Virus record (IMG/VR): IMGVR_UViG_2896028454_000001
Coordinates: 3,450 to 67,449 of that record
From: a virus
Taxonomy: Duplodnaviria; Heunggongvirae; Uroviricota; Caudoviricetes
Strand: one strand, 5' to 3'
DNA: 64,000 bases
Shown here in pieces: positions 4,690 through 63,296 of this stretch (its first letter is position 1; every line of letters begins with the position of its first letter). The position numbers and the translations under genes are program-made. Under the pieces are notes generated by a model. It ran no database searches and had not been told where the DNA came from. It was given only the letters and a program-made list of their open reading frames with translations.

Positions 4690-5276
4690 TGCACGACTAC
4701 GAACACGACCGCCGCGCCAAGCTCGCGGACTGGGAGAACACCAAGGCTGCAAACCGGCTCGCCCTCTGGGAGAACACCAAACAGCCCAAGGCGTTCGCCA
4801 AACCCGGCACCCTGCACCCCGACATCGCCGCCTGGTGCGACCGCTTCGCCGCAGGAGAGACCGGCAACCTCATCATCGCCGGGGGCATCGGTGTCGGGAA
4901 GACCTGGAACCTGTGGGCCATCGGCCGGTACCTGATCACCCGCCACCACTGGTTCGGCCGCATGGAAGTCGCGACCGCCTACGACTTCCACGTAGCCACC
5001 GAGGGGTTTAAAGCAGACCGAGACCAGCTCAACGTGTGGTCGTCCGCTCACCTGCTCGGCCTGGACGACGTCGGCGCCCAGACCGTGAACGAGCGGACAA
5101 AGGAGCACTACGCCGGGGTCATCAACACCCTGTCCGAGGACGAGCGACCGATCATCGCCACCACCAACGAGGAGAAGTTGGCCCCGTTCGTCGGCGACCG
5201 TGCCGCGTCCCGGCTCCGTGAAAACGCCACCTTCGTCACCATCACCGGATACGACCGCAGGAAGGCCCGCCAGTGA
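4689..5276 (+). CDS. DnaC/IstB-like AAA+ helicase loader
   Basis: Walker A GGIGVGKT and Walker B LLGLDDVG. Sits between the initiator and the DnaB-like helicase. Confidence 0.75.
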   Translation: MHDYEHDRRAKLADWENTKAANRLALWENTKQPKAFAKPGTLHPDIAAWCDRFAAGETGNLIIAGGIGVGKTWNLWAIGRYLITRHHWFGRMEVATAYDFHVATEGFKADRDQLNVWSSAHLLGLDDVGAQTVNERTKEHYAGVINTLSEDERPIIATTNEEKLAPFVGDRAASRLRENATFVTITGYDRRKARQ

Positions 5277-7977: not shown

Positions 7978-8502
7978 GTGGCAGGCGAAACCCAGATCAC
8001 CCTGGTCGGCAACCTGGTGGACGACCCGGAGCTTCGGTTCACCCCGGGCGGTCACGCCGTCGCGAACTTCCGTGTCGCGTCTACCCCCCGCACCTTCGAC
8101 CGGGACAAGGGCGAGTACGTGGACGGCGAGTCCATGTTCCTCACCTGCACCGTCTGGCGGCAGTACGCGGAGAACGTGGCCGAGTCCCTTCAGCGCGGTA
8201 TGCGCGTCGTCGTTCAGGGCCGCTTGAAGCAGCGGAACTACGAGAAGGACGGCCAGAAGCGGACCGTCTTCGAGATCGACGTGGACGAGGTCGGCCCGTC
8301 CCTGCGGTCCGCGACCGCGCAGGTGACGAAGAACCCGCGCGGCAACGGCAACGGGGGCGGCCAGCGCTCCCAGGGCGGCGGCTACGGCCAGCAGTCCGGC
8401 GGGTTCGGCGGTGGCCAGCAGCCCCCGACCCAGGACCCGTGGGCCGGTAACGGCGGCGGTCAGCCCAGCGGCGGTAGCTACTCGGACGAGCCCCCGTTCT
8501 AA
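7978..8502 (+). CDS. ssb: Single-stranded DNA-binding protein
   Basis: OB-fold N-terminus ([19 protein letters not shown]...), Gly/Gln-rich tail ending in the acidic DEPPF. Confidence 0.9.
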
Positions 8503-10744: not shown

Positions 10745-11262
10745 TGCCCGTGGACACCGCCGCTGAGGCCCGCATGGTGGTCGCCGGGCGGGTCGCGGAC
10801 CCCACCACCCAGGAGGTCACCCCCGCAGAGCTGGAAGCCCTCCGCCCCCTCCTTGACGCCCTGGATCTGCTCCCCCGCCCCGAGACCCCGGACGAAGCCG
10901 AAGCCGAATCCGGGCCCGACACCACTAACCCGGTCAAGGAACCGATCGCCAACCCGGCCAAGGAACCGGCCGCCGTCCGGGACGAGTGCGGAACCCGCAA
11001 CGGCTACCAGCAGCATGTCCAGCTCGGCGAAGAAGCGTGTGAGGACTGCAAGGCAGCCAACCGGATCTACGCCTACGCCTGGTACCAGCGCAACAGGGCC
11101 AACCGCCGGGAGTTGGCCCCGTGCGGGACCGAAGCCGCGTACCAGCGGCACCGGCGGCGACGCGAGGAATGCCGGGAGTGCAAGGACGCGAACGCCCGGG
11201 CGGGCAGGGAGAAGCGGGCACGGCAGAGTGCCCGCCGAGCGCGCGACCGCGCCACCGCATGA
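10744..11262 (+). CDS. Protein with two copies of the G.GY..H...C..C..A..Y motif
   Basis: CGTRNGYQQHVQLGEEACEDCKAANRIYAYAWYQRNRANRR and CGTEAAYQRHRRRREECRECKDANARAGREKRARQ. Confidence 0.5.
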   Translation: MPVDTAAEARMVVAGRVADPTTQEVTPAELEALRPLLDALDLLPRPETPDEAEAESGPDTTNPVKEPIANPAKEPAAVRDECGTRNGYQQHVQLGEEACEDCKAANRIYAYAWYQRNRANRRELAPCGTEAAYQRHRRRREECRECKDANARAGREKRARQSARRARDRATA

Positions 11263-11312
11263 ACCCAGACCGCCCCACCCGAACCCACCCGCCTTTTGGA
11301 GAGGAGGCCCCC

Positions 11313-12107
11313 GTGCGCTTCTACCTCGGAACCCACCAACCCGACTGGCTTCACCACCTCAACCACCGGTGGTTCGAAGCCGACCAGGTCCCCCTGTTCG
11401 TGTCCCACCGCCGCCTCGCCGACCGCCGCACCCTGTTCCCCGCGAACGTCCCGTGGGCCCTCGACAGCGGCGGGTTCACCGAGCTGTCCATGTACGGCCG
11501 GTGGGTAACCACCCCCACGGACTACGCCCACCACGTCCGCCGGTACATGGACGAGATCGGCCGACTGGAGTGGGCCGCCCCGCAGGACTGGATGTGCGAG
11601 CCGGTGATGCTCGCCAAGACCGGCCTCACGGTCGCCCACCACCAGGCGCGCACCCTCGACAACCTGTTGGAGCTGCGCCACCTCGCCCCCGACCTGCCGT
11701 GGGTGCCCGTCCTCCAGGGGTGGGAGCCGGACGACTACCGGCGCCACGCCGACGCCTACCAGTCCGCTGGTGTCGACCTCACCACGGAACCCGTCGTCGG
11801 GTTGGGGTCGGTGTGCCGCCGCCAGTCCACCACCGCCGTGCACAGCCTGGTCGCTGAGCTGGCCGCTGCTGGGCTCCGGTTGCACGGGTTCGGGTTCAAA
11901 ACCCTTGGCCTCCGCAAGGTCGGGCATCTGCTCGCGTCCGCTGACAGCCTCGCTTGGTCGTTGAACGCCCGCCGTCGCCCCGCCATGGCCGAGTGCTTCG
12001 ACGCTCACGAGCACTGCGGGAACTGCCCCCGGTTCGCCACCCGGTGGCGCCGCCAGCTTCTCGACTCCCTCACCCCGCCCCCGGCCCCCTCCGCTTACGC
12101 GGCCTGA
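11313..12107 (+). CDS. tRNA-guanine transglycosylase superfamily protein, DpdA-like
   Basis: DSGGF catalytic-Asp motif (as in the TGT DSGGFQ). VPVLQGW, GLGSVCRR. C-terminal C-x5-H-x-HC-x2-C zinc-site-like motif (CFDAHEHCGNCP). Confidence 0.6.
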   Translation: MRFYLGTHQPDWLHHLNHRWFEADQVPLFVSHRRLADRRTLFPANVPWALDSGGFTELSMYGRWVTTPTDYAHHVRRYMDEIGRLEWAAPQDWMCEPVMLAKTGLTVAHHQARTLDNLLELRHLAPDLPWVPVLQGWEPDDYRRHADAYQSAGVDLTTEPVVGLGSVCRRQSTTAVHSLVAELAAAGLRLHGFGFKTLGLRKVGHLLASADSLAWSLNARRRPAMAECFDAHEHCGNCPRFATRWRRQLLDSLTPPPAPSAYAA

Positions 12108-12123
12108 CCCGAACAGGACCCCC

Positions 12124-12903
12124 ATGGACTCCCTCAGCCTCGCTGACCGCATGAAGACCTACGAGGCCGCCACCCGCCATATCCTCCCCGCCCAGACGTA
12201 CACCGTCGTCCGCGTTGACGGGCGGGCGTTCCACACGTTCCTCCGCCACGCTGACCGGCCGTTCGACGACGCGGTCATGGCCGCCATGGACGCCACCGCC
12301 GTCGCCCTCTGCAAGGACATCAGCGGGGCCCGGTTCGCCTACACCCAGTCGGACGAGGTCAGCGTCATCATGACCGACTTCGGGAACGCTGGCACACAGC
12401 CGTGGTTCGGCGGGGTCGTCCAGAAGATCGCGTCGGTTGCCTCCTCGGTGGCCACCGTGGCGTTCAACGCCGAGTACGGGCACCACTACGACGACGCGAC
12501 CGCCACGTTCGACGCGCGCGTGTTCACGCTCCCCACCGCGGCGGAGGTCGTGAACTACTTCGTGTGGCGGCAGCGCGACGCGGTCCGCAACGCCGTGTCC
12601 ATGGCTGCCCAGGCCGAGTTCTCCCACCGGCAACTCCACGGGGTGAACACCGCCCAGGCCCGCGAACTCCTCCGATCGCGCGGCATCGACTTCGACGCCT
12701 ACCCGGCCGGGGCCCGGTACGGCCGGTTGTGTGCTCGCGCCACCAGCGAACGCACCGTCACCTACACGGACAAGCGCGGGGTTGAGCACACCACCCGGGC
12801 CGTCCGCTCCCACTGGGAGACCATGCCCGCCCCGTCCTTCACCGCCGACCCGGGCGGGGATCTGGCCTCGTCCATCCCCGAGCCCGGCGACCACACCTCC
12901 TGA
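12124..12903 (+). CDS. Thg1-like protein (tRNA-His guanylyltransferase-like 3'-5' nucleotidyltransferase family)
   Basis: VVRVDGRAFH vs Thg1 VVRLDGRNFH. AYTQSDEVSVIM vs AYGQSDEYSFVF. DARVFTLPT...YFVWRQ vs DGRVVVYPS...YLSWRQ. Motifs are collinear with eukaryotic Thg1. Confidence 0.75.
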   Translation: MDSLSLADRMKTYEAATRHILPAQTYTVVRVDGRAFHTFLRHADRPFDDAVMAAMDATAVALCKDISGARFAYTQSDEVSVIMTDFGNAGTQPWFGGVVQKIASVASSVATVAFNAEYGHHYDDATATFDARVFTLPTAAEVVNYFVWRQRDAVRNAVSMAAQAEFSHRQLHGVNTAQARELLRSRGIDFDAYPAGARYGRLCARATSERTVTYTDKRGVEHTTRAVRSHWETMPAPSFTADPGGDLASSIPEPGDHTS

Positions 12904-20487: not shown

Positions 20488-20739
20488 GTGAACCTCGCTG
20501 GCCGTACCCGCGCTGACATCGACGCGCTCCTCACCGAACGAGACACCGACATCGCCACCCTCACCCAAGCCGCCGACATCGCCGACACCCGCCGCCTGTT
20601 CGACCTCGCCGACCACTGCCGAAAGTGGGCAGCGAACCCACCCAACCCCGCCGGGGGCACCCCGATCGGGTACCTCCTCGCCCTCACCTACGCGGACCTT
20701 CTCGTCCACGGCCACACCCCCCAGGAGCACACCCCATGA
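20488..20739 (+). CDS. Hypothetical protein (83 aa)
   Basis: GTG start inside track ORF 20431..20739. Confidence 0.4.
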   Translation: MNLAGRTRADIDALLTERDTDIATLTQAADIADTRRLFDLADHCRKWAANPPNPAGGTPIGYLLALTYADLLVHGHTPQEHTP

Positions 20740-21515
20740 CCCTGATGACCGGGTTCGACCTGGAAACCACCGGGAAGGACCCCGAAACCGCGCGCATCGT
20801 CGAGTACGGGTTCGCGCACGTCGGCGGCGGCCAACCTTCCGAGTTCGTGGAGGAACGTGTCAACCCGGGGGTTCCGATCCCAGCCGAGGCCGCCCAGGTC
20901 CACGGCATCACCGACGAGATGGTGGCCGCCGCCATGTCGGCCGAGGCCGCGGTGACCCGCATTGTGCGGACCATCGCTGGGGTGCTCGCTGAGGGCCGGT
21001 TGCTGGTCGGCCACAACATCGTGTACGACCTGACCGTGTTGGACCGGGAGTGCCGCCGCCACCTCGGGGAGGGGTTGGAGTCCCTGTTGGGGGTGCCGGT
21101 CCGCCCGGTGGTGGACACGTTGGTGTTGTCCAAGCACCTGGACCCGTACCGCAAGAGGGTGTCGGACAAGCAGGGTGCTCACCAGTTGCGTACCTGTGTG
21201 GAGAAGATGGTGACCCCCCGGTGGCCGTCTGTGGTGTGGGACGAGGGGGAGGCGCACGGGGCCCTGTACGACTGTCGCATGGCGTTGTATGTGGCCGCGG
21301 CCGTGTTGGCTCTCCCGAAGCTGTCCAACCTGGGCCTGGGGGAGTTGCACGATGCCCAGGTGGGGTGGAAGGCCGCTCAAGCCGCCGGGTTCCAGACCTA
21401 CCTTCGCAACCCGGCGAAAGCGGGGGACAGCTACGACCCGGGCGCGGTAGTGGACGGCAGGTGGCCGGTTGTTCCGGCTGAGCCCCGGCAGGAGGCGTTG
21501 TTGGGGAGGGGGTGA
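20736..21515 (+). CDS. DnaQ-like 3'-5' exonuclease (DEDDh)
   Basis: Exo I FDLETTG. Exo II LVGHNIVYDL. Exo III HGALYD. Confidence 0.75.
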   Translation: MTLMTGFDLETTGKDPETARIVEYGFAHVGGGQPSEFVEERVNPGVPIPAEAAQVHGITDEMVAAAMSAEAAVTRIVRTIAGVLAEGRLLVGHNIVYDLTVLDRECRRHLGEGLESLLGVPVRPVVDTLVLSKHLDPYRKRVSDKQGAHQLRTCVEKMVTPRWPSVVWDEGEAHGALYDCRMALYVAAAVLALPKLSNLGLGELHDAQVGWKAAQAAGFQTYLRNPAKAGDSYDPGAVVDGRWPVVPAEPRQEALLGRG

Positions 21516-21640: not shown

Positions 21641-22261
21641 GTGCCCCCTTTCCCTCGTGCTGTCTGTCCTGGTTGTGGCGAGGACATCGCGGTCAACCGG
21701 GGCGGGCGTCTCCGCGTTCACGGCCGTCTGCCCTACGACGGGTGCCCCGGGTCCAGCAGGTACGCCCGGCCTCTGCTGTTCCTGGACGTGGACGGGCCCT
21801 TGAACCCGCACTACATGGGCAAGAACAAGTCCCGCCGGTTGGGTTACCAGCGGGACTGGATCAACGGGTTCGACGTCCGTCTGAACCCCTCCCACGGCCC
21901 CGCCCTCCTCGGCCTCCCTGTGGATCTGGTGTGGGGCACCACGTGGGAGCACGACGCGAACAAGCTGATCGGCCCCGTCATCGGGCTGCCCGAACTGCCG
22001 GTGTGCGAGTGGTCGAAGACCGAACCGAAAGGCATCGACCGGCGGGTGTATTACAAAACCCCCGACCTGGTCGATTACGCCGAAGACCGGCACCGGCCGT
22101 GGATCTGGGTGGACGACGAGATCGGCGACGCCGACCGCGAATACGCCGCCGGGGCCGCGACCGTCCCCACCCTCCTCCACCGGGTGGACCCCCGCGAAGG
22201 GCTCACCACCGACGACTTCACCGCGATCACCGCGTGGGTCCACAACCTCAACAACCCCTGA
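21641..22261 (+). CDS. HAD-superfamily phosphatase (polynucleotide 3'-phosphatase-like)
   Basis: Motif I FLDVDGPL. Motif IV WIWVDDEIGD. N-terminal CPGC...C zinc ribbon. Confidence 0.55.
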   Translation: MPPFPRAVCPGCGEDIAVNRGGRLRVHGRLPYDGCPGSSRYARPLLFLDVDGPLNPHYMGKNKSRRLGYQRDWINGFDVRLNPSHGPALLGLPVDLVWGTTWEHDANKLIGPVIGLPELPVCEWSKTEPKGIDRRVYYKTPDLVDYAEDRHRPWIWVDDEIGDADREYAAGAATVPTLLHRVDPREGLTTDDFTAITAWVHNLNNP

Positions 22262-23128: not shown

Positions 23129-24442
23129 GTGATCACCATCAAGGACCTCTTCGCCGGTGGCGGCGGCACCACCACAGGCGCCCGCAAGGTGCCTGGCGTC
23201 AAGGTCAGCATGGCCGTCAACCACTGGCCGCTGGCCGTCGACACCCACAACCTGAACCACCCCGACACCGGCCACGACTGCGTCGACATCTCCCAAGTCG
23301 ACCCCCGCCGGTACCCGACCACGGACATCCTGTGTGCGTCTCCGGAGTGCACGCAGCAGACCAGGGCGCAGGGCGTGGCCCGCACCGCCCGGCAGGCGTT
23401 CGACCTGTTCAGCACCGACGAGATGGACGCCGCTGAACGCTCCCGCGCCACCATGTGGGACGTACTGCGGTTCACGGAGGTGCACGCCTACCGGTACATC
23501 ATCGTGGAGAACGTCATCGACGTCCGAGGCTGGGCGATGTGGCCCGCGTGGGCGCTGGGCCTGGGCTGTCTCGGCTACGAGTTCCGGTACATCAGCCTCA
23601 ACAGCATGTTCGCTGGGGCTTTCGGCGCCCCGGCAGCCCAGTCCCGCAACCGGGGTTACGTCGTCGCGTGGAAGAAGGGCGAGCGCGCCCCGGATTTCAA
23701 CGCGTGGCTGCGCCCCTACGCGGACTGCCCCGTTCACAAGCGTGTGCAGGCCATCCAGGCGTTCAAGAACGGTCGCGAGTACGGCGAGTACGGGCCCCAG
23801 TACATCTGGCGGTGCCCCCGCGTGGAGTGCCGTAACACCCAGGTCCACCCGAAGGTGCGCCCGGCCGCCGACATCATCGACTGGTCCATCCCCACCCCAC
23901 GCATCGGCGACCGCACCACCCCGCTCGTGGAGAACACCATGCGCCGGGTCCGGGACGGGGTCGCCACCTACGGCCGCCCGGCCGAGGACGGCACCCACCT
24001 GCCGCCGTTCATGACCGAACTCCGGGGCGGCGGGTCCAAGCACCGGCCCATGGCGTCCCCGCTGTCCACCGTCACCGCTGGCGGCAACCACCACGCCATC
24101 ACCGTCCCCGACATGATCTACCCGTACTACGGCAACTCGGCTCTCCAGCCCGCCGCCCGGCCGCTGCCCACGGTCACGACGGTGGACACCTGCGCGCTCC
24201 TGCAAGGCGGGGTCATCCGCGACATCAACGACCTGCGGTACCGGATGCTCAAACCGCACGAGTACGCCGCCGCCCAGGAGTTCCCGGCGGACTACCGGTG
24301 GCCGGTTACGTCGAGCAAGAAGCTCGTCCGGATGATCGGGAACGCGGTGTCCACGAACGCGGCCCGTGACCTGGTGGGCATGGTCGCCGCCCAGATGGAC
24401 CCGAGCATCGTTCCGACGTGGGGGATGGGGTTGGCCGCATGA
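23129..24442 (+). CDS. DNA (cytosine-5)-methyltransferase
   Basis: FAGGGG motif I, SPEC (PC motif), IVENV motif VI, target-recognition domain region, C-terminal motifs. Confidence 0.85.
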   Translation: MITIKDLFAGGGGTTTGARKVPGVKVSMAVNHWPLAVDTHNLNHPDTGHDCVDISQVDPRRYPTTDILCASPECTQQTRAQGVARTARQAFDLFSTDEMDAAERSRATMWDVLRFTEVHAYRYIIVENVIDVRGWAMWPAWALGLGCLGYEFRYISLNSMFAGAFGAPAAQSRNRGYVVAWKKGERAPDFNAWLRPYADCPVHKRVQAIQAFKNGREYGEYGPQYIWRCPRVECRNTQVHPKVRPAADIIDWSIPTPRIGDRTTPLVENTMRRVRDGVATYGRPAEDGTHLPPFMTELRGGGSKHRPMASPLSTVTAGGNHHAITVPDMIYPYYGNSALQPAARPLPTVTTVDTCALLQGGVIRDINDLRYRMLKPHEYAAAQEFPADYRWPVTSSKKLVRMIGNAVSTNAARDLVGMVAAQMDPSIVPTWGMGLAA

Positions 24443-43198: not shown

Positions 43199-44401
43199 AT
43201 GACCCTCACCCACGAAGACGCCCGTCTCCTCACCGGCCTCGAAGTCGCCACCACCCGCGCCACCCTCACCAACGCGCTCACCACCGTGGCCGTCGCCATC
43301 CACACCCGCCCCGCCGTCCCCATCCTCGCCGGGGTCCACCTGACCGGCGACGCGGACGGCACCCTCACCCTGACCGGGTTCGACTACGACACCGCCGTCA
43401 CCGTCACCCTCCCCGGCGTGGCCACCAACCCCGGCCGGGTTGTCCTCTCCCACGCAGAGCTGGCCGGGCTGCTCGCCGCGACCGCGAAGGGCACACCCGC
43501 GAAGAAGGCCGGGGCCGCGCCCGTGGTCTTGGCCCAGAACGGCAACAAGCCGACCTTGACCGTGGACGGGTACACCCTGCCGGTCGCGGACTACCCCGTG
43601 GACGAGTACCCGACCCTGCCCACGGCGCCCGCGCCCACGCTCACCGTCGACGCGGCCACGTTCGCGGCGGAGGTGGCCCGTGTGGTGCCCGCCGCCGGAG
43701 GGGCCGACGACATCCCCCAGTTGGTGAACGTCCAGTTGGAGACGTACACCAGGGGCGCCTTGTGCCTTACCGCCACCGACCGGTACCGGATCGCTCAGGC
43801 CACCATCCCGGGCACCCGCGCCCCCCGCGCCCCCCGCGCCGACCTCGGCCAGGTCGTGCGCGTCAACGCCGCACTGGTCGGCAAGGTCACCAAGCACCTG
43901 AAGGGGGACACCGTCACCGTTGGGGTGCACGGGGACATGGTCATGCTGGCCAGCGGGCCCGTCACGGTGGTCACCCGCACCAGCGAGGATGAGTTCCCGG
44001 CCGTGGAGAAAGCCATCCCCACCACCATCCCCATGTCGGTGACCGTGGATCACAAGGCGGTGGCCGCCGCGATCACCAAGGCGGGCAACATCCTGGCGGC
44101 GAAGGGTGAACGGGGCCTGTCGGTGGGTATCACCGTCAACCCGGGGTCGGTGGCGGTCGCTCCGGACCTGCCCGGTGTCCTCGCCCCGCAGATCACCGCT
44201 GACACGTCCGATGCGGACGGTGAGGTGTCCGTCTACTTCAACCCGAAGTTCCTCGCGGCGGCGGTGGGAGCGTTCAAGAGTGAGGACACGGTGACGTTCC
44301 ACCTGGACACGCCGACCCGCCCGGTCGTGGTGACCGGCGGTGGGCACACCGTCAAGTCCGCGCCCTACCGCCACCTGGTGCAGCCGATCAGGGTCCACTA
44401 G
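43199..44401 (+). CDS. DNA polymerase III beta sliding clamp-like protein
   Basis: N-terminus LTNALTTVAVAIHTRPAVPILAGVHLTGDADGTLTLTGFDYDTAV matches the DnaN N-terminal domain. 400 aa, consistent with three clamp domains. Confidence 0.7.
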   Translation: MTLTHEDARLLTGLEVATTRATLTNALTTVAVAIHTRPAVPILAGVHLTGDADGTLTLTGFDYDTAVTVTLPGVATNPGRVVLSHAELAGLLAATAKGTPAKKAGAAPVVLAQNGNKPTLTVDGYTLPVADYPVDEYPTLPTAPAPTLTVDAATFAAEVARVVPAAGGADDIPQLVNVQLETYTRGALCLTATDRYRIAQATIPGTRAPRAPRADLGQVVRVNAALVGKVTKHLKGDTVTVGVHGDMVMLASGPVTVVTRTSEDEFPAVEKAIPTTIPMSVTVDHKAVAAAITKAGNILAAKGERGLSVGITVNPGSVAVAPDLPGVLAPQITADTSDADGEVSVYFNPKFLAAAVGAFKSEDTVTFHLDTPTRPVVVTGGGHTVKSAPYRHLVQPIRVH

Positions 44402-48490: not shown

Positions 48491-48545
48491 TCGAACTCAC
48501 GTTCGACAATGCTCCGCTGATCATGTACCATGAGTGTCAGCGGAG
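48491..48545. promoter_or_regulatory. AT-rich divergent control region with palindromes TCGAACtcacGTTCGA and CTCCGCTGA-(TCATGTACCATGA)-TCAGCGGAG
   Basis: Read directly. Nested inverted repeats in the intergenic region between 47871..48389(-) and 48601..48858(+). Confidence 0.4.
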
Positions 48546-48600
48546 AAACTATGCCCTCAGCCACCAGGTTGGGGGCATTTGTCGTTTCGGGAGACCCCAG

Positions 48601-48858
48601 ATGCGCCCCGTACCCCTGACCAACGGCAACCTGATCAACGCCGACCAGGCCGCCCAGCTCCTCGGTAAGAGCGCGCGCACCGTCCGCGCCTACACCACCC
48701 GCGGCCTCCTGCTCGCCAACGGGGAACGCTGGTACCTGCCCGTCGCCGGGCTCGACCACCGGGGCGTGCAACTGTTCAACCTGGCCGACATCCGCACGGC
48801 CGCGCAGGCTGTCCAGGAGCGCGGCCGGTCCAACAAGCGGGTTCTGGTGGCCGCATGA
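48601..48858 (+). CDS. Excisionase/MerR-like HTH DNA-binding protein
   Basis: INADQAAQLLGKSARTVRAYTTRGLL is a Xis/MerR-type HTH. Confidence 0.45.
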   Translation: MRPVPLTNGNLINADQAAQLLGKSARTVRAYTTRGLLLANGERWYLPVAGLDHRGVQLFNLADIRTAAQAVQERGRSNKRVLVAA

Positions 48859-48930
48859 GCCTGTACGAGCAGCTGTTGCAGTTCCTCGAACTGGACGCGT
48901 ACCTGGACGACTGGGCGATCCCCAACCCGG

Positions 48931-49021
48931 GGGAGTGCGCCGGAGATGGAGCGCCGGAGCTGGCTGTAACCCAGTGACCCCTTTCGCGGGTTAGGAGGTT
49001 CGAGTCCTCCCACTCCCACCA
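48931..49021 (+). tRNA. tRNA-Tyr (anticodon GTA), class II with long variable arm, encoded CCA
   Basis: Hand-folded. Acceptor GGGAGTG/CACTCCC. D-arm CCGG/CCGG with GG. Anticodon stem GCTGG/CCAGT. Loop CT-GTA-AC. T-arm GGAGG-TTCGAGT-CCTCC. About 91 nt. Coordinates +/- 1. Confidence 0.6.
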
Positions 49022-49042
49022 CCCCGCCCACACGCGGGGCCT

Positions 49043-49118
49043 ATGCGGGTAGCTCAACTGGTAGAGCAGCCGCCTCCAAAGCGGCCGGTTGCGGGTTCGA
49101 ACCCTGCCCCGTATGCCA
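49043..49118 (+). tRNA. tRNA-Trp (anticodon CCA), encoded CCA
   Basis: Hand-folded. Acceptor ATGCGGG/CCCGTAT (one G-U pair). D-arm GCTC-AACTGGTA-GAGC. Anticodon stem GCCGC/GCGGC. Loop CT-CCA-AA. T-arm GCGGG-TTCGAAC-CCTGC. 76 nt. Confidence 0.75.
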
Positions 49119-49233
49119 CCCCGGCCCTCACTGGTCGGAGGAACCCCCACCCCGGGAACCATGGCCTACCCCGGGGAAGTGGCCTGGGGTCCGCCCACGG
49201 AAACGGGGCAACCCCGGGCCGCGCACCACCCCG

Positions 49234-49777: not shown

Positions 49778-50293
49778 CTACTTGCGCAACACCTTCTCCA
49801 TGCGCGCTTTCCGTTCCGCGTGCTCGGCCTCGGTGATCTCACCGTCCGCCAACATACGATCCAGCTCGCCGAACGCGTCCTGCGCGGCCTGCGCGAGCTT
49901 ACCCCCCGGGGCGCCCACGGCCTTGTCCCGCCAGGTGCCCACCGGCCCCCCGCCCGGGTTGAGGACCGCCTGCTCCAACTCGCGGGCACCGGATATCACC
50001 TTGAACGTCCGGTCGCCCCCAGCGGTGTGAAGGGTGATCTTCCCGCGCCCGCGGTCAACCCCAGCGACGGGCAACGCCACCGACGACGTCGAGGTGCGGC
50101 CGAACATGCCGGCGGACACGAACAGCAGGCGCCGGTTCGTGGCCACAGCGACACCGTTTTTCCCGTCTAGGTTGACGGCCCCGGCGGCGTTCACGGTCTC
50201 GTCCGCGCCCAGCTCGGTTTCAGCGGCGGCCAACGCCTTCTTCAGGAGAGCGAACCCGCCTACCCCTGTGGCCCGTTCGAGGTCTTCACGCAC
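49778..50293 (-). CDS. Bacterial PH-domain-like protein with a C-terminal SHOCT motif
   Basis: C-terminal LADGEITEAEHAERKARM matches the SHOCT pattern (L..G.I...E...K...L). Central beta-rich region. Confidence 0.45.
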   Translation of the reverse strand: MREDLERATGVGGFALLKKALAAAETELGADETVNAAGAVNLDGKNGVAVATNRRLLFVSAGMFGRTSTSSVALPVAGVDRGRGKITLHTAGGDRTFKVISGARELEQAVLNPGGGPVGTWRDKAVGAPGGKLAQAAQDAFGELDRMLADGEITEAEHAERKARMEKVLRK

Positions 50294-51089: not shown

Positions 51090-51377
51090 ATGCGCCCCGC
51101 CGACATCGACCACCGGTACAAGTACCACCCCTCCAACACCCCCGACGCCATCACCGCCCACGAGACCGTCCGAGGCGGCGCCCTCAGCCTCGCCCACCTC
51201 ATCAACACCCACGTCCCGGACGGCCCGGACAAGGACCTGTCCCTGAACGCCCTGGACGACGTCCTGTTCCGCGCGAACGCCGGGATCGCCCGAGGAGGGG
51301 GCCGTTCGCATAGCGGCCCGTGCCGGTGCAACCCCCGCCTGCGCACCAAGACCCTGGACGAGGCCACCGATGGCTGA
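51090..51377 (+). CDS. Hypothetical protein (95 aa)
   Basis: ORF. Confidence 0.45.
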   Translation: MRPADIDHRYKYHPSNTPDAITAHETVRGGALSLAHLINTHVPDGPDKDLSLNALDDVLFRANAGIARGGGRSHSGPCRCNPRLRTKTLDEATDG

Positions 51378-56536: not shown

Positions 56537-56735
56537 CCACCCCCACCACCCCACCCCCACACAACCCGCCCCGTAAAACCGCAGGTCAAAGCCCGAACCC
56601 CACCCCGGCACCCCACCCAAGGGGGGAGGGGGGTTCAAATCGCTCTGACCTGGGATAACGCCGGGCGCGCGGGTGACTCTCTGAGCACGCCGACGAGTTT
56701 CCCGAAAAATATCCGGCCGGAAGGAGGTGGCGGCC

Positions 56736-57227
56736 GTGGGCAAGCGAGGCCCCCGCGAGAAACCCACCTCCCTCAAGCTCCTCGACGGCACCCGCCGCGA
56801 CCGGATCAACACCGACGAACCCCTCCCCGGGCAGGGCACCATCGCCCCGCCCGGGTGGCTGGTCGCTCTCCACAACCAGGCCGACCCCGCGTCCCCCTAC
56901 GAAACCGCCCTGGACGTGTGGAATCGGCTCGCCCCCGACCTCGAAGCGAAGATGGTCCTCACCCCATGGGATGTCGACACGTTCGCGGTGTGGTGCGACG
57001 CCGTTGTCCGCCACCGCGAAGCCGTTGACGAGATCACCCAGTACGGGGTCATGGTCGTCGGCCAGAAGGGCGAGCGGGTCAAAAACCCGGCCGTCCAGAT
57101 CGCCCGCGACTACGCGGAGACGATGACCCGCATCGGTGCCCGCTTCGGCCTCACCCCCTCGGACCGTGCCGGTCTGAAGATCGACCGGGAGGAGGTCAGG
57201 GGTGGAGCCGAACGATTCCTCTCCTGA
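56736..57227 (+). CDS. Terminase small subunit (P27-family-like)
   Basis: KGERVKNPAVQIARDYAETMTRIGARFGLTPSDRAGL is typical of the P27 small terminase family. Immediately upstream of the large terminase, with overlap. Confidence 0.7.
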   Translation: MGKRGPREKPTSLKLLDGTRRDRINTDEPLPGQGTIAPPGWLVALHNQADPASPYETALDVWNRLAPDLEAKMVLTPWDVDTFAVWCDAVVRHREAVDEITQYGVMVVGQKGERVKNPAVQIARDYAETMTRIGARFGLTPSDRAGLKIDREEVRGGAERFLS

Positions 57228-58914
57228 CCTGCCCGCGTGCTCCTGGACCCATGACGGCCTGACCTGCCCCGAGCAGGGCAACCACTTCTGTACCCCGCGC
57301 GCGAACCACGCCCAGGGGTTCATCGAAGAGGTCCTGGTGCACACCAAGGGCACCTACGCGCGCAAGCCGTTCATCCTCACCGACTGGCAGCGCGACGACA
57401 TCGTCCGGCCCTTGTTCGGGCAGGTTCGCTGGTCCGACGAGTACCAGGACTACGTCCGCCAGTACTCCACGGCGTGGATCGAACTGGCCCGCAAGAACGG
57501 CAAGTCCGAGATCCAGGCCGCGATCATGCTGTACCTGCTCGTGGCGGACGGTGAGGAAGAAGCCGAACTGTACGGGTGCGCCCGCGACCGCGACCAAGCC
57601 AGCCTGGTGTTCAACGTCGCCAAGCGCATGGTGCAGCTCTCACCGGTGCTGTCGCGCCGGTTGCAGGTCAAGGACGCCAACAAGCGCATCGTGGACCCGA
57701 AAACCGCGTCGTTCTACCAGGTGATCGCCGCCGACGCGGCCGGAGCCCTGGGCTACAACCCGCACGGGGTTGCGGCCGACGAGATCCTGGCGTGGCGCAA
57801 GCGGGACCTGTGGGACGCCATGGAGACCGGTATGGGTTCGGGGGCCCGCCGACAGCCGTTGATGATCGCGGCGACCACCGCAGGCAACGACCCGACCAGC
57901 TTCGCGGCGAACATGCACAACGAGATGCAGCGCATCTTCGACATGCCGGACCGGTCGGCGCACACGTTCGTGTACCTGCGCAACACCCCGGAGGACGCGG
58001 ACCCGTGGGATGAGGCGACGTGGAAGATCGCGAACCCCGCCCTGGGGGACTTCCTGTCGATCGAGAAGTTCCGGCAGGCCGCATCGGACGCACGGAACGC
58101 CCCGGAGAAGGAGAACGCGTTCCGCCAGTTCCGTCTCAACCAGTGGGTGCGCCAGTCCACCCGGTGGATGCCCATGCACCTGTACGGGGAGAATCCCGGC
58201 GAGGTGTGGTCCCACCCGGACCAGGCGCGCGAGGAGCTGGCGGGCCGGGAAGCCTACGGCGGCCTCGACCTGTCCGCGAAGTTCGACCTGACCGCGTGGT
58301 GTGTGCTCCTTCCCCCGGAGGAGAAGGGCGGCCCGGTCGATGTGCTGTGGCGGTTCTGGTTGCCCGAGGACGCCTTGCCGAAGCTCGACGAGGAGAACGA
58401 CGGCGCGTTCACCCGGTGGGCTGAACAGGGCTGGTTGACCATCACCGAAGGCAACATCATTGACTACGACCGGGTGTACGAGGACATCGGCGAGGACGGC
58501 GAACACTTCGCGTTCCGTGCCGCGCACGCCGATGAGTGGTCGATGTGGCCGGTCATCAACAAGGTCGCGGACCTTACCGGCCTGGACCCGGAAGAGGGCG
58601 AGATCGTCGCGTACAAGAACACCTACGACCGGATGACGCCGGGGTTGAACGAGGTCATGGCGTTGGTGAAGACCCGCCGGTTCGCGCACCACGGCAACCC
58701 GGTCGCGTCGTTCTGCTTCGACAGTGTCGAGGTGCGGCGCGCCCCGTACAACCCGGACCTGATCCGCCCGGACAAACCGGAGCGGGACAAGTCCGGGAAG
58801 CGCATCGACGGTGTTCCGGTGGCGGCGATGGCCGCGAACGCGATGGTCCTCAACGCCGACACCGGCGAGGGTTACCGGTCCGCTTACGAAGACCGCGGCC
58901 TCACCGTCGCCTAA
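57202..58914 (+). CDS. Terminase large subunit
   Basis: 570 aa. ATPase region then nuclease region with conserved acidic residues. Standard position before portal. Confidence 0.9.
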   Translation: MEPNDSSPDLPACSWTHDGLTCPEQGNHFCTPRANHAQGFIEEVLVHTKGTYARKPFILTDWQRDDIVRPLFGQVRWSDEYQDYVRQYSTAWIELARKNGKSEIQAAIMLYLLVADGEEEAELYGCARDRDQASLVFNVAKRMVQLSPVLSRRLQVKDANKRIVDPKTASFYQVIAADAAGALGYNPHGVAADEILAWRKRDLWDAMETGMGSGARRQPLMIAATTAGNDPTSFAANMHNEMQRIFDMPDRSAHTFVYLRNTPEDADPWDEATWKIANPALGDFLSIEKFRQAASDARNAPEKENAFRQFRLNQWVRQSTRWMPMHLYGENPGEVWSHPDQAREELAGREAYGGLDLSAKFDLTAWCVLLPPEEKGGPVDVLWRFWLPEDALPKLDEENDGAFTRWAEQGWLTITEGNIIDYDRVYEDIGEDGEHFAFRAAHADEWSMWPVINKVADLTGLDPEEGEIVAYKNTYDRMTPGLNEVMALVKTRRFAHHGNPVASFCFDSVEVRRAPYNPDLIRPDKPERDKSGKRIDGVPVAAMAANAMVLNADTGEGYRSAYEDRGLTVA

Positions 58915-59528
58915 TCCGCCGGTACGAGGATGGATCGGAGCATCGCACCGGCCGGGGTCAGAACGAACCGGTCGCCTTCCTGCGTGTACGCGAAGCCCTT
59001 CAACGCGGTGTCGGGCACCTGCTCGGCCGTGTCGTCCTGGAACGCGTCCAGCTCGGCACGGTGGGGGAGTACCGGCATCTGGTTGATGGGCATGTTCACC
59101 GGCCCGTCCTGCCACGCCCACACGCTCACCATCGGACGTAGCTCTTGGAGAGCGCCGGCCGCGTGGAGCACGTGTGCGTCCAAGCTGCCACCGTCGTTGG
59201 GCACGTTGATGGTGATCGGCCAACGCGGCGTGTGATCGTGCAGCAACCGCAGGAGCGCGCCCATTTGCCGCCATGGCCCGTTGGTGAACTCGGCCAGATC
59301 GAGCAACACCAGCGACCTCAGGTCGATGGTCGGGCCGAGGTGGGTGTCAGGAGTGATCTCGTGTAGGACCTGCTCGGGTTCCTCGCCTTTGTGTGCCAGG
59401 AACGTCTCCATGGCGGTGTCCTTGTCGGCTGCCCCGTTCACCCCAACCACAATTAGGGGTTCTGCGGGGGCCACGGCCACCATTGGGACGCCGGACTTTT
59501 CGTTCACCAGCATCACATGGACTGACAA
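58911..59528 (-). CDS. Hypothetical protein (205 aa), minus-strand insert
   Basis: Protein-like composition. Convergent with the terminase gene. Confidence 0.5.
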   Translation of the reverse strand: MSVHVMLVNEKSGVPMVAVAPAEPLIVVGVNGAADKDTAMETFLAHKGEEPEQVLHEITPDTHLGPTIDLRSLVLLDLAEFTNGPWRQMGALLRLLHDHTPRWPITINVPNDGGSLDAHVLHAAGALQELRPMVSVWAWQDGPVNMPINQMPVLPHRAELDAFQDDTAEQVPDTALKGFAYTQEGDRFVLTPAGAMLRSILVPAD

Positions 59529-59647
59529 CAGGGGCCTCCGCTCACAGGGGTTTCAGGGGGTTCCAGAGTCCTTCTCGGACAGTAGCGGACCCCACCAGCG
59601 CCCACCACCGGTTCGGCCAGTCCAGGCCGCTTTCTAGAACCGCGGGC

Positions 59648-60232
59648 TCACTGTCGCGTGACGAACCGGCCTTTGCCTCGCACGACCGTGACGAGCCCGG
59701 CCCCTTCCAACGCCGCGAAGGCGTGCCGGGCCGTCATCCGCGACACCCCGTACTCACGCTGAACATCCGCCTCGGACGGCAGCGCGTCATCCGGGGCCAG
59801 CTCCCCGCTGGTGATCCGCCTCCGTAGATCACGGGCGATCACCCGGAACGGTGCGCTCGCCTTCACCGGCAACTCCCCGCGCTCCTGGGCGGTGCACACC
59901 ACACGGCCCGAACCCGGGCGAGCCCGAACCCGGCGGTCCTTCTCCAACTCCGCCAGCGCCCGCCGAACGGTCGTGCGCGACACCCCGAACTCGGCCATCA
60001 ACGCCGACTCGGACGGGACCGGGGCCCCTGGGGTGAGCTGCCCCGACTCGATCCGGGCGGTCAGCTCCTTAGCGATCGCCCTGTAGGTGCCCCACTCCGC
60101 CCGCTGCCCCGACACGCTCATGCGCCCAACGTACCGGGCCAACCCAACCAGAGAAGGGGGGTGGCCCGCGTTGTTTGCCTGGCTCCGCCTGCTCCTCCGC
60201 CGTGAGGTCGTCGTGAACCTCCACGACGGCAC
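59648..60232 (-). CDS. Tandem GntR-type winged-HTH transcriptional regulator (no effector domain)
   Basis: Two copies of the GntR HTH signature: ALMAEFGVSRTTVRRALAELEKDRRV and ADVQREYGVSRMTARHAFAALEGAGLV. Confidence 0.6.
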   Translation of the reverse strand: MPSWRFTTTSRRRSRRSQANNAGHPPSLVGLARYVGRMSVSGQRAEWGTYRAIAKELTARIESGQLTPGAPVPSESALMAEFGVSRTTVRRALAELEKDRRVRARPGSGRVVCTAQERGELPVKASAPFRVIARDLRRRITSGELAPDDALPSEADVQREYGVSRMTARHAFAALEGAGLVTVVRGKGRFVTRQ

Positions 60233-60386
60233 GGGATTCCGCGGGGTCCTCTACCGCAAGGCCGGTGGCCTCGTGGAACTCCGCAACGCCGAACGCCTCG
60301 AACCCGGCCTGCCACCGGCCCAGTGTGACGGGGCGGTCGTCCTCGAACGGTCCCAGATCCTGTTCTGGCAGGTGGTGCCGTCGTGA
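60171..60386 (+). CDS. Small hypothetical protein upstream of portal (TTG start)
   Basis: AGAAGGGGGG RBS 8 nt upstream of the TTG. ATGA overlap with portal. Confidence 0.35.
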   Translation: MFAWLRLLLRREVVVNLHDGTGFRGVLYRKAGGLVELRNAERLEPGLPPAQCDGAVVLERSQILFWQVVPS

Positions 60387-62380
60387 GCATCATCGTGTCC
60401 GGCGGGAAACTCGAACAGGTCCGCGACCACGGCGGGTACACGCTCCCGGCCGCGATCCAGCTCGGCAACACCTGGGTGGAGTACGGGCAGATCTTCGACG
60501 CCCAACCGCAGGTGCAGACCGTGGTGTCGTTCCTGGCGCGCAACATCGCCTCGTTGACGTTGCACGCCTACGAACGCCGGTCCGACACCGACCGGGCCCG
60601 GCTCACTGACCACCCGCTCCCGAAGGTGCTCCGCAACCCGCTCCCCGGGCGGAAGCTCACCAGGTACCAGCTGTTCTACCGGATCGTCGCTGACCGGGCC
60701 ATCTACGACGACGCGTTCGTGGTCAAGCTCCGCGACGGCAACGGGAAGGTCATCGGCCTGCTGCCGGTACCCCGCCCGTGGGTGACCCCCGACAAGGGGA
60801 CGTGGATCGAACCCGCCGAGTACGTGGTGGCCGGGACCGTGCGTGTCCCGGCTGAGGACATGATCCACCTGCACGGGTACGCCGTCGACTCGCTGTGGCA
60901 CGGCACGTCCCCGATGGGGGCGCTCAGGAACATCCTCCTGGAGGAGTACGAGGCGAACCGGCACCGCCAGCAGATGTGGCGGAACGGGGCCCGCACCTCC
61001 GGGTTCATCCAGCGCCCGCAGATGAAGGGCAAGGACTGGTCGGAGGAGGCCCGCACACGGTTCCAACGCGAGTTCCGTGACCTGTACACCGGGGAAGGCG
61101 CAGACGCCGGAGGGGTGCCGGTCCTGGAAGACGGGATGACCTACGTCCCGGCCGGGCTCGACCCGCGGGCAGCCCAGTACATCGAGGCGCGCAAGCTCAC
61201 CCGCGAAGAGGTCGCCGCCGCTTACCACATCCCGCCCCCGTTGGTGGGCATCCTCGACCACGCCACGTTCTCCAACATCCGTGAGCAGCACAAACAGCTG
61301 TACCAGGACACGTTGGGCCCGTGGCTGGTCGACATCGACGAGGCGTTGGAGATCCAGCTCGTCCCCGAACTCGCGGACCCCGACCTGGTGTACCTGGAGT
61401 TCGACATCCGGTCGAAGCTGAACGGTGCGTTCGAGGAACGGGCCGCCGCCGCATCGTCGGCTGTGGGTGCCCCGTGGATGACCGTGAACGAACAGCGGGC
61501 GTTGGACAACCTGCCCGCCATCCCCGGCGGGGACGAACTGATCACCCCGCTCAACGTGACCAAGGGCGGGCAAGCGTCCCCCCGCGACTCGGCGCCGGAC
61601 CCAGCGGACACCGCGAAGACGACCAACCCGCCCCGGGTGAAGGCCCGCACCGTCCACCTGAAGATGGCCCCGCCCGAACACGCGGTGAACCAGGCGGAGA
61701 AGGAGCTGGCCCGGTTCTTCGACCGGCAGGCCCGCTCCCTCAGTTCCCTGCTCGGCGCTGCGAAGGCCCGCGGGCACCTGACCAAGGAGTCCGCGGCCTC
61801 GGTGAACTGGGACCGGTGGGAGGGCGAACTGGCCCTGGTCCTGACCCAGGTCAACCTGGCCACCGCCGCGCAGGCCGCTCGCGCCGCGTTGGAGGAGATG
61901 GGTGCCGACCCGGCCGACTACGACCCGGAGGCCACCGCGTTGTGGCTGATGGACAACGCGGCTGCGCAGGCACAGGCGACCACGGACACCTCCCGTATCC
62001 AGGTCGAGGAGGCGTTGGACGCGGAGGACCCGGCGGAGGCGTTGAAGGCCCTGTTTGCGGCGTGGGGGACGTCCCGTGCCGCTGAGTTGGCGCACCGCCA
62101 CACCCAGCACATCACCGGCTATACGTCGGTGAAGGAAGCCCGCAAGGTGTTCGGGTCCTCAGCGCGGAAGACGTGGCGGACCACGTCCCGCAACCCCCGG
62201 TCTTCGCACGTGCGGATGAACGGGCAGACCGTGCCGATCGACAGCAAGTTCTCTAACGGCGGCCGGTGGCCCGGCGACAGCCTGTTGTCCGCCCGTGAGG
62301 CCGCGAAGTGCAAGTGCATGTTGTCGATCACCGGCATCCCCGAAACCGACGATCCCGGCACCGTGCCGGACGAGGAGTAA
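60383..62380 (+). CDS. Portal protein
   Basis: 665 aa. Position after terminase. Conserved central portal region and acidic C-terminus. Confidence 0.85.
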   Translation: MSIIVSGGKLEQVRDHGGYTLPAAIQLGNTWVEYGQIFDAQPQVQTVVSFLARNIASLTLHAYERRSDTDRARLTDHPLPKVLRNPLPGRKLTRYQLFYRIVADRAIYDDAFVVKLRDGNGKVIGLLPVPRPWVTPDKGTWIEPAEYVVAGTVRVPAEDMIHLHGYAVDSLWHGTSPMGALRNILLEEYEANRHRQQMWRNGARTSGFIQRPQMKGKDWSEEARTRFQREFRDLYTGEGADAGGVPVLEDGMTYVPAGLDPRAAQYIEARKLTREEVAAAYHIPPPLVGILDHATFSNIREQHKQLYQDTLGPWLVDIDEALEIQLVPELADPDLVYLEFDIRSKLNGAFEERAAAASSAVGAPWMTVNEQRALDNLPAIPGGDELITPLNVTKGGQASPRDSAPDPADTAKTTNPPRVKARTVHLKMAPPEHAVNQAEKELARFFDRQARSLSSLLGAAKARGHLTKESAASVNWDRWEGELALVLTQVNLATAAQAARAALEEMGADPADYDPEATALWLMDNAAAQAQATTDTSRIQVEEALDAEDPAEALKALFAAWGTSRAAELAHRHTQHITGYTSVKEARKVFGSSARKTWRTTSRNPRSSHVRMNGQTVPIDSKFSNGGRWPGDSLLSAREAAKCKCMLSITGIPETDDPGTVPDEE

Positions 62381-62387
62381 CCACACG

Positions 62388-63296
62388 ATGATGCGCACGA
62401 AGTCCGTGCCCGTCCAGATCAAGGCCGCGGGGGAGCACGAGGGCACCGAGAACGGTGTTGTCGAGGCGATCGTCGCGACCTACGACAAGGACTCGGTGGG
62501 GGACAAGATCGCCCCCGGGGCGTTCACGAAGACCCTGGAGGAGTGGGCGGCGTCCAAGGACCCCATCCCGTTCATCTGGTCGCACGACTGGTCCAACCCC
62601 GACGCGCACATCGGCGTGATCGAGGAGGCCAAGGAAACCAGTGAAGGGCTGTGGATCAAGGCCCGCGTCGACCTGGAGGAGCCGTTCGCCGCGAAGGTGT
62701 ACCGGCTGTTGAAGGGCCGCCGGGTCAAGCAGTTCAGCTTCGGCTACGAGGTCAAGGAAGGCGCCTACGTCGACCTGAAGAACGACGATGGTTCCTACTC
62801 GGGGTTCTACGAGCTGCGGGAGCTGAAGCTGTTCGAGGCCGGCCCCTGCCTGGTCGGCGCGAACCAGAACACGAGCCTCGGCGTGGTGAAGGCCGCGGAC
62901 ACCGGTCTCACGGAGGACCGGGTGCGGGCGATCGTCGCTGAGGTGCTGGCTTCCAAGTCCACCCCGGACCCGGAACCCGCCCCGACCGGCCCTGACCCGG
63001 AACCGGAACCCGCCCCGGAACCCACCGGCCCGGCCACCGCGGACCCCGAACCCGCCCCGGAACCCGAGCCCACCCCGGACACCCCCGGATGGGACACCAT
63101 CACCACCGCCCTCGCGGCGCTCTCCGACCAGGTCAAGCACCTCACCGACCAGCTCGCCCAGCAGCCCACCCCGGCACCGGAACCGGCCGCCACCGACGAC
63201 GCCCCCACGGGTAAGTCGGCCGCGCCCGAACCCCCGGCCCCGGACCCGCTGCGCGCCCAGCTCGCCGACCTGACCGCCAACCTGGCCGACCTGTAA
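62388..63296 (+). CDS. Prohead (head maturation) protease, HK97/S78-like, with a Pro/Glu-rich C-terminal extension
   Basis: ELKLFEAGPCLVGANQNT matches the L.EVSLV..PAN motif region. Position between portal and capsid. C-terminal PEPAPEP repeats. Confidence 0.7.
   Translation: MMRTKSVPVQIKAAGEHEGTENGVVEAIVATYDKDSVGDKIAPGAFTKTLEEWAASKDPIPFIWSHDWSNPDAHIGVIEEAKETSEGLWIKARVDLEEPFAAKVYRLLKGRRVKQFSFGYEVKEGAYVDLKNDDGSYSGFYELRELKLFEAGPCLVGANQNTSLGVVKAADTGLTEDRVRAIVAEVLASKSTPDPEPAPTGPDPEPEPAPEPTGPATADPEPAPEPEPTPDTPGWDTITTALAALSDQVKHLTDQLAQQPTPAPEPAATDDAPTGKSAAPEPPAPDPLRAQLADLTANLADL

Follow-up and report, generated by a model that had tools for sequence, protein, structure and literature searches.

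Two tandem tRNA genes of phage-borne lineages, tRNA-Tyr(GUA) and tRNA-Trp(CCA), in a Nocardiopsis prophage as candidate replacement tRNAs

We examined two tandem tRNA genes, tRNA-Tyr(GUA) and tRNA-Trp(CCA), in a 64,000-nucleotide (nt) stretch of viral DNA (positions 3,450 to 67,449 of the IMG/VR record IMGVR_UViG_2896028454_000001, hereafter the window), which is an integrated siphovirus-type prophage of Nocardiopsis sp. FR26. Both are intact tRNA genes borne by the phage genome; their sequence features place each of them in a tRNA lineage carried by phages, and neither is a fresh copy of a host gene. Prophage-encoded tRNAs are an ordinary kind of feature, here with some unusual details. From the genes we infer, with even chances of being right, that the pair are functional replacement tRNAs of phage lineage, which would sustain the decoding of Tyr and Trp codons, perhaps against defences that target tRNAs.

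ARAGORN made two tRNA calls in the whole window, adjacent to each other and both on the + strand (Table 1). Since 40 dinucleotide-preserving shuffles of the window gave only 0.1 calls each, a tandem same-strand pair is far beyond the chance level. A preliminary description of the window had proposed a Tyr-GTA and a Trp-CCA tRNA at exactly these coordinates, and ARAGORN, one of the checks that it suggested, accepted both; the 21-nt separation, the CCA encoded in both genes and the 91-nt class II form of the Tyr gene, with a long variable arm of 18 nt, could be read directly from the sequence. Its wording of canonical cloverleaves is right for tRNA-Trp, which scored 62.1 bits against the Rfam general tRNA model (RF00005, cut-off 29), but holds only in part for tRNA-Tyr, which has C8, G21 and a 4-bp D stem and gave no RF00005 match reaching the 29-bit cut-off. 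The best match of tRNA-Tyr in the same Rfam clan was tRNA-Sec, at 32.9 bits and under the Sec cut-off of 47; this identity was rejected, as the anticodon is GUA and not UCA and the acceptor/T arrangement is 7/5 and not 8/5. Matches to YrlA and mir-540 were discarded as well, being far under their cut-offs, and the YrlA match merely covers both tRNAs. Single-sequence folding was uninformative, the minimum-energy fold of tRNA-Tyr alone not being a cloverleaf in the D/anticodon region (z = -2.3) and that of tRNA-Trp having a z of -0.7.

By direct reading, tRNA-Tyr is a bacterial class II cloverleaf with a perfect 7-bp acceptor stem (G1-C72, A73), 5-bp anticodon and T stems, G18-G19, a 7-nt anticodon loop CUGUAAC (U33, G34-U35-A36) and the T loop UUCGAGU. 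The identity set for tyrosyl-tRNA synthetase (TyrRS; A73, G34 and U35, with G1-C72 in bacteria, PMC9976931) is complete, and the long variable arm is present too. The core departs from the conserved one (U8, A21, R15-Y48 and an RF00005 score above the cut-off): it has C8 in place of U8, G21 in place of A21, and G15 with A48, an A at the last variable position; C8 is followed by G9. The D arm is formed by a 4-bp CCGG/CCGG stem and a 10-nt loop (AGAUGGAGCG) and contains a 13-nt direct repeat.

These features recur in other phages. Among contigs with related terminases, which we scanned for tRNAs and refer to as the relatives, two (L005 and L234) have a Tyr homologue at the same locus that keeps C8, G9 and the D arm and shows compensatory changes, for example from U-A to G-C in the anticodon stem. 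Exact scans found the D-arm motif in tRNA-Tyr(GUA) genes on IMG/VR contigs, within arrays that comprise 3-30 tRNAs, as well as in two tRNA arrays of metagenome-assembled genomes, and in a relaxed scan with positions 7-9 left free, all five new Tyr matches still had C8-G9. A BLAST search of cultured phages added the annotated tRNA-Tyr genes of Rhizobium, Alishewanella and Microcystis phages, which have C8-G9 and the D loop in common, and the D stems of which covary (GUGA/UUAC, GCAG/CUGC and GUGA/UCAC). In the alignment of the family (A2; 16 sequences, namely the window and 15 homologues from relatives and other phages), 97.6% of cells were paired and both sides had changed in 19 of the 21 pairs, including all four D-stem pairs, so that covariation is present in all four stems; none of 500 shuffles scored as high and no slid register came close. 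The strict search pattern itself fixes the D arm, so that the members it found necessarily have that arm in common; the independent evidence lies in the syntenic L005 and L234 copies, the relaxed-scan matches and the phages found by BLAST. The members noted, besides the window, are L005, L009, L010, L012-L016 and L022-L029, with very diverse hosts and GC contents. All four other members tested (L005, L012, L013 and L014) went unreported at the RF00005 cut-off, whereas the model did report other class II tRNAs of the arrays concerned. Two tRNA-Tyr genes from actinobacterial chromosomes, which lie upstream of the rplK region, show the usual U8-G9 together with a 3-bp CCC/GGG D stem and a GAGYGGCCAAA loop. 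From these comparisons we conclude that the window gene genuinely belongs to a tRNA-Tyr lineage borne by phages and marked by an invariant C8-G9 and a 4-bp D stem, and is not a degenerate copy.

The named cultured representatives (Rhizobium phage RHph_I1_18, Alishewanella phage Slicko01 and Microcystis phage Mwe-JY26) and the IMG/VR array members are class II tRNAs like that of the window, and the lineage has as common invariants C8, G9, G15, U17-G18-G19-A20-G, A26, the anticodon loop and the T loop. They differ in their setting, being found in large arrays (3-30 tRNAs) on viral contigs 10-189 kb long and in cultured genomes of 101-171 kb, whereas the window gene is one of only two tRNAs in a temperate actinobacterial prophage, and its variable arm has 18 nt compared to 11-15 nt there. 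The T5-like tRNA-Tyr matches only the part of the lineage from the anticodon to the T arm and not the D arm. When the anticodon/variable-arm string and the T-arm/acceptor string were searched for exactly in viral sequences, no match was obtained.

The tRNA-Trp gene has, along with its Rfam score, the canonical core (U8-A14, G18-G19, UUCGA), and its identity set for tryptophanyl-tRNA synthetase (TrpRS; PMC12135181 and PMC9976931) is complete, with the major elements C34-C35-A36 and G73 and the minor elements A1-U72, G5-C68 and A9. The acceptor stem reads A1-U72, U2-A71, G3.U70, C4-G69 and G5-C68, followed by G73, and so lacks the G2-C71, G3-C70 and G4-C69 that are listed as acceptor pairs of bacterial tRNA-Trp (PMC9976931). 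Annotated tRNA-Trp genes of mycobacteriophages from clusters A and K (such as Rando14, Fred313, ResDef and Stasia) show 80-87% identity to the gene, which has in common with them A1-U72, G3.U70, C4-G69, G73, the D and anticodon arms, and a place as a single tRNA or in a small cluster of an actinobacterial siphovirus. Unlike them, it lies in a different host genus and an unrelated phage genome, has U2-A71, C31-G39 and an encoded CCA, and is paired with Tyr rather than Asn. G3.U70 and C4-G69 were present in all eight phage-type tRNA-Trp genes (the window, L234, L002, L005 and the four mycobacteriophages), among which the pairs 2:71, 5:68, 6:67 and 7:66 vary; in the Trp alignment (A6), 99.6% of cells were paired and both sides had changed in 11 of 21 pairs.

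Host-type tRNA-Trp genes were sampled from metagenome contigs, for which an actinobacterial L11 sequence served as the probe. This yielded 80 rplK loci, 77-92% identical to the probe, and the 46 with enough upstream sequence were scanned. Each of these chromosomal loci had one tRNA-Trp, upstream of secE-nusG-rplK, and all 46 genes (28 distinct sequences) have A1-U72, G2-C71, G3-C70, G4-C69 and G73, with the CCA encoded in only three. Outside the acceptor stem, the window tRNA-Trp hardly differs from the host type. The main identity element for alanine is G3.U70 (PMC9976931); it occurs here without A73, without G4-C69 and, in the window, without G2-C71. It is not a general property of phage tRNA-Trp but an actinophage-lineage trait, as the pair occurs in only four out of 52 distinct sequences from IMG/VR that share the D/anticodon-arm core with the window gene, their acceptor stems being very diverse. 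In summary, the Trp gene is, as judged from its acceptor stem, a member of an actinophage tRNA-Trp lineage marked by G3.U70/C4-G69.

The preliminary description had assumed a Streptomyces host. The large terminase (TerL) has a 100% identical counterpart among the proteins of Nocardiopsis sp. FR26, the contig onto which the window maps is VWVX01000002.1 of GCA_009830995.1, and about 5 kb to the left of the window the phage genes give way to host genes for isocitrate lyase (ICL), a ramB-like regulator and an acyl-CoA dehydrogenase. Because of the TerL match and these host genes, the element is placed as an integrated Nocardiopsis prophage and not as a Streptomyces phage. The GC content of the window is 69%, and almost all genes are on the + strand. 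No megablast match of the locus to cultured phages was obtained, and the sliding clamp is about 29% identical to those of the nearest cultured phages, the element having no close cultured relative.

Comparison with the relatives shows that the slot occupied by the pair is a fast-changing tRNA cassette with fixed borders, subject to rapid gain, loss and decay. Where the window has Tyr and Trp, L002 (TerL 96% identical to that of the window) has Trp and Lys(ctt), and L003, from N. rhodophaea (86%), has a His-like tRNA alone, with an anticodon loop of 4 nt (5356-5428; Rfam 42.7 bits), to which ARAGORN could assign no anticodon. L234 (71%) has Tyr, a tRNA-like element and Trp. In L005 (67%) we found Tyr, a tRNA-like element, a Trp copy not called by ARAGORN, a minus-strand gene, Lys(ttt), His and Trp. 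The tRNA-like element between Tyr and Trp (about 1715-1805 in L005 and 1790-1870 in L234; absent from the window) has acceptor, D and T arms and an oversized anticodon region, and was called neither by ARAGORN nor by Rfam at the gathering threshold. The minus-strand gene of L005 (1887-2332, 104 amino acids, aa) has a 5′ fragment of tRNA-Lys on one side and the intact tRNA-Lys(ttt) on the other, and looks like an insertion that duplicated part of a tRNA.

The left border of the slot is a conserved MerR/Xis-like helix-turn-helix (HTH) gene, the product of which is 50-84% identical in L002, L005 and L003. Its real start is probably at 48601, and the resulting 85-aa length matches the gene call in the public collection; a 148-aa version of the open reading frame (ORF), with the wrong start, had no exact-protein match, and a query with the protein found no viral-contig match. 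The right border is a GC-rich hairpin block, of which CCGGCCCTCACTGGYCGRGG and a long hairpin are kept in L002, L005 and L234, whichever tRNA precedes it; with a fold of -64 kcal/mol (z = -1.5), it is a candidate terminator or processing site. Upstream of the HTH gene lies a candidate control region of the transcription unit, the 3′ part of which is conserved in L002, L005 and L003. The preliminary description was thus correct in placing an Xis/MerR-like HTH gene just upstream of the tRNAs and a palindromic control region near it, with inverted repeats and a hairpin at 48512-48578. It had also reported adjacent minus-strand insert genes: minus-strand genes do lie downstream, but the SHOCT/bacterial-PH gene is no insert, as it is found at the same position in L002, L003, L005 and L234. 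Between the HTH gene and the tRNAs, a 40-aa ORF is translationally coupled to the HTH gene and reaches into the 5′ half of tRNA-Tyr with its last 47 nt. In the window, L005 and L234, its motif LDAYL(D/E)D(W/Y)AIPNP (LDAYLDDWAIPNP) stops precisely at the edge of the tRNA, and among the relatives the ORF and tRNA-Tyr are either both present or both missing, L002 having neither. On the far side of the minus-strand gene is an Acb2/Tad1-like gene, likewise no insert, as it is conserved in L001, L002, L005 and L234. Phage proteins of the Acb2/Tad1 family sequester signalling nucleotides of defence systems, and to judge by this family match the pair may lie in a counter-defence neighbourhood, which we count in favour of replacement tRNAs.

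According to the scheme that we favour, the tRNAs would be transcribed rightward together with the MerR/Xis-like gene and the 40-aa ORF, the transcript ending or being processed at the conserved GC-rich hairpins, which face the convergent minus-strand genes. Host RNase P and 3′ processing enzymes would excise the tRNAs and host TyrRS and TrpRS would charge them, and they would then sustain Tyr and Trp decoding in infection when the host tRNAs are limiting or have been destroyed by tRNA-targeting defences or toxins. Enzymes that destroy tRNAs may act poorly on them owing to their lineage-specific differences from the host type, which lie in the D arm for Tyr and in the acceptor stem for Trp. 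Precedents exist in other hosts: the T5 tRNA-Tyr rescues infection from the retron-Eco7 PtuAB, which degrades tRNA-Tyr (PMC11555353), tRNA-Trp-CCA is cleaved by VapC25, VapC33 and VapC39 of M. tuberculosis (PMC5175351), and resistance of phage tRNAs to anticodon nucleases has been proposed (PMC10264068). The isotypes found across the relatives (Tyr, Trp, Lys and His) all have such nuclease precedents. As with the T5 tRNA-Tyr against PtuAB and tRNA-Lys against PrrC/PARIS (PMC11555353, PMC11464382), the prophage has its own copy of a defence-targeted isotype; unlike in those cases, no such defence is known in Nocardiopsis.

Several observations weigh against this reading. We know of no tRNA-targeting nuclease in this host. 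The anticodon loop of tRNA-Trp (CUCCAAA) is identical to the host type and that of tRNA-Tyr differs from it only at position 38, and such host-like loops do not fit the published model of escape by anticodon-loop mutations. tRNA-Tyr has the non-canonical core described above (C8, G21) and a sub-cut-off Rfam score, and for the part of its family that was gathered with a pattern fixing the D arm, the conservation of that arm is built in. Moreover, an intact tRNA is missing from the slot of L003, and none was found in the fetched regions of L232 and L233; because some relatives do without them, the tRNA genes are dispensable. A further suggestion, which we regard as unlikely, is that the fixed departures of both tRNAs are adaptations: the C8 and 4-bp D stem of Tyr, found in phages of Actinobacteria, Proteobacteria and Cyanobacteria, and the G3.U70/C4-G69 of Trp, found in actinophages, may hide them from host cleaving or modifying enzymes, and the G3.U70 of Trp could alter the charging synthetase.

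We next consider codon usage and supply. GUA and CCA are the sole anticodons for Tyr and Trp, and Trp has one codon. In the prophage, 96-99% of Tyr codons are TAC, and Tyr and Trp make up 2.4-2.6% and 1.9-2.0% of codons, respectively; the three flanking host genes have 2.9% Tyr and 2.0% Trp, with TAC at 33 of 33 Tyr codons. Since the usage in the prophage matches that of the host flank, there is no special codon demand. Compensation of codon bias, a role that had been suggested for the pair, was therefore rejected on the single anticodons, the dominance of TAC and the host-like frequencies. This also bears on a simple boost in supply, by which extra copies would enlarge two single-anticodon tRNA pools and speed up phage translation without any defence being involved. 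It is the classical explanation of phage tRNAs (reviewed in PMC10264068), and is in keeping with two intact genes with their identity elements and with the one tRNA-Trp per chromosomal actinobacterial locus examined, upstream of secE-nusG-rplK. We consider it possible but not probable, as it meets no special demand and leaves unexplained both the lineage-specific differences of the two genes from host tRNAs and the choice of isotypes with nuclease precedents (Tyr, Trp, Lys and His).

The prophage state raises the question of tRNA-dependent lysogeny, where integration of a phage disrupts an essential host tRNA gene that is not rebuilt, and a phage-encoded tRNA of the same isotype sustains the lysogen. 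This is documented for actinobacteriophages (Fionnbharth, LeBron and Gaia; PMC10865867), which like the present element are temperate and have one or few tRNAs, and Trp is the tRNA most often kept across the relatives. Nevertheless, we think it improbable, since neither an ARAGORN call nor a host-type Trp or Tyr motif was seen in the contig region spanning the left junction (L021), the left flank (ICL, the ramB-like regulator and acyl-CoA dehydrogenase) is unlike the 46 sampled trpT loci, just upstream of secE-nusG-rplK, no integrase family was found among the scanned window ORFs or the left-end gene calls, and the known cases concern Lys, Ile2 or Leu tRNAs. The simpler idea of a host tRNA at the prophage edge was discarded, the pair being about 54 kb inside the prophage and the left junction being free of tRNA. 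A relic status, whereby one or both genes, most likely Tyr, would be decaying tRNA-like passengers outside translation, is suggested by the decayed slot copies of the relatives (the His-like tRNA of L003, the uncalled Trp of L005 and the tRNA-like element of L005 and L234) and by the sub-cut-off score, C8 and G21 of Tyr. It appears very improbable, however, as the odd features of Tyr do not vary among the 16 members of the family, which sit in phage tRNA arrays that are otherwise normal, its four stems covary, all identity elements are intact, and it is the whole family, not the window copy alone, that falls under the Rfam cut-off. We give least credence, and very little, to the view that the tRNA genes are mainly DNA targets, serving as attachment or recombination sites for the insertion and exchange of accessory genes: the L005 gene between the tRNA-Lys fragment and the intact tRNA-Lys and the variable slot content between fixed borders speak for it, whereas no neighbouring gene in the window is flanked by a duplicated tRNA fragment and the minus-strand neighbour is conserved, not inserted. 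Such a role would also be compatible with tRNA function.

The other gene families of the window were assigned by Pfam and PHROG scans of the predicted proteins (Table 1). The preliminary description had linked the pair to RNA-repair genes; the Thg1-like gene is real, the HAD_SAK_2 match is weak, and the link to the tRNAs is one of co-occurrence only, at a distance of 27-37 kb. The gene for DpdA (7-deazaguanine DNA modification) directly adjoins that for the Thg1-like 3′-5′ nucleotidyltransferase (11121-12903). In the late operon, two minus-strand genes (58911-60232), one for a protein of 205 aa with no known function and the other for a regulator of the GntR type that has two HTH domains, split the large terminase from the portal. 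At the left prophage end (L021 3750-5300, about 116.6-118.2 kb of the contig), there are a minus-strand repressor-like gene and a divergent HTH gene resembling Cro, and the host ICL, ramB-like regulator and acyl-CoA dehydrogenase genes follow immediately to the left. In the N. rhodophaea relative, the large terminase (P0004 / L003 10001-12733) has a LAGLIDADG intein and is 910 aa long, compared to 570 aa.

Table 1. Features of the tRNA slot, its neighbourhood and the rest of the window, with the phage-type tRNA-Trp set.
Feature	Position	Strand	Description	Evidence
Candidate control region	48503-48578	+	upstream of MerR-like gene	consensus scans, repeat finder
Promoter-like hexamers	48503-48531	+		consensus scans
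9-bp inverted repeat	48512-48545			repeat finder
Hairpin, then T-rich tract	48551-48578			repeat finder
MerR/Xis-like HTH gene	48601-48858	+	85 aa	phrog_2474, E=6.3e-11; Pfam HTH_17 and MerR, sub-cut-off
40-aa ORF	48855-48977	+	start overlaps MerR-like stop (ATGA)	called in public collection
tRNA-Tyr(GUA)	48931-49021	+	91 nt, class II, encoded CCA	ARAGORN
Tyr-Trp spacer	49022-49042	+	21 nt, small hairpin CCCCGC..GCGGGG	sequence reading
tRNA-Trp(CCA)	49043-49118	+	76 nt, encoded CCA	ARAGORN; Rfam RF00005, 62.1 bits
GC-rich hairpin block	49119-49225	+	directly 3′ of last tRNA; right border of slot	
SHOCT/bacterial-PH gene	49778-50293	-	convergent	Pfam SHOCT and bPH_3; phrog_2700
Acb2/Tad1-like gene	51090-51377	+	2 kb downstream of tRNAs	Pfam PF24729, 42.4 bits (cut-off 27)
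DnaB helicase	5273-6607			Pfam/PHROG
SSB	7978-8502			Pfam/PHROG
DpdA	11121-12107			Pfam, 281.7 bits
Thg1-like protein	12124-12903	+		Pfam Thg1, 95.9 bits
RNase T-type exonuclease	20625-21515			Pfam/PHROG
HAD_SAK_2 (weak match)	21641-22261			Pfam/PHROG
C5 DNA methylase	23129-24442			Pfam/PHROG
Sliding clamp	43199-44401			Pfam/PHROG
Terminase small and large subunits	56727-58914			Pfam/PHROG
Portal	60383-62380			Pfam/PHROG
Prohead protease	62295-63296			Pfam/PHROG
Phage-type tRNA-Trp set	window 49043-49118; L234 1875-1950; L002 2448-2523; L005 2409-2484; L017-L020		G3.U70/C4-G69	

Phage tRNAs are a familiar kind of gene, and the pair adds little to their catalogue. Both genes come from a viral tRNA gene pool, with signatures that are missing from the chromosomal actinobacterial tRNAs sampled, and model-based annotation can miss the tRNA-Tyr lineage, none of the tested members of which was reported by the Rfam general tRNA model. 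The locus is a compact natural system for asking whether phage tRNAs act as nuclease-resistant spares.

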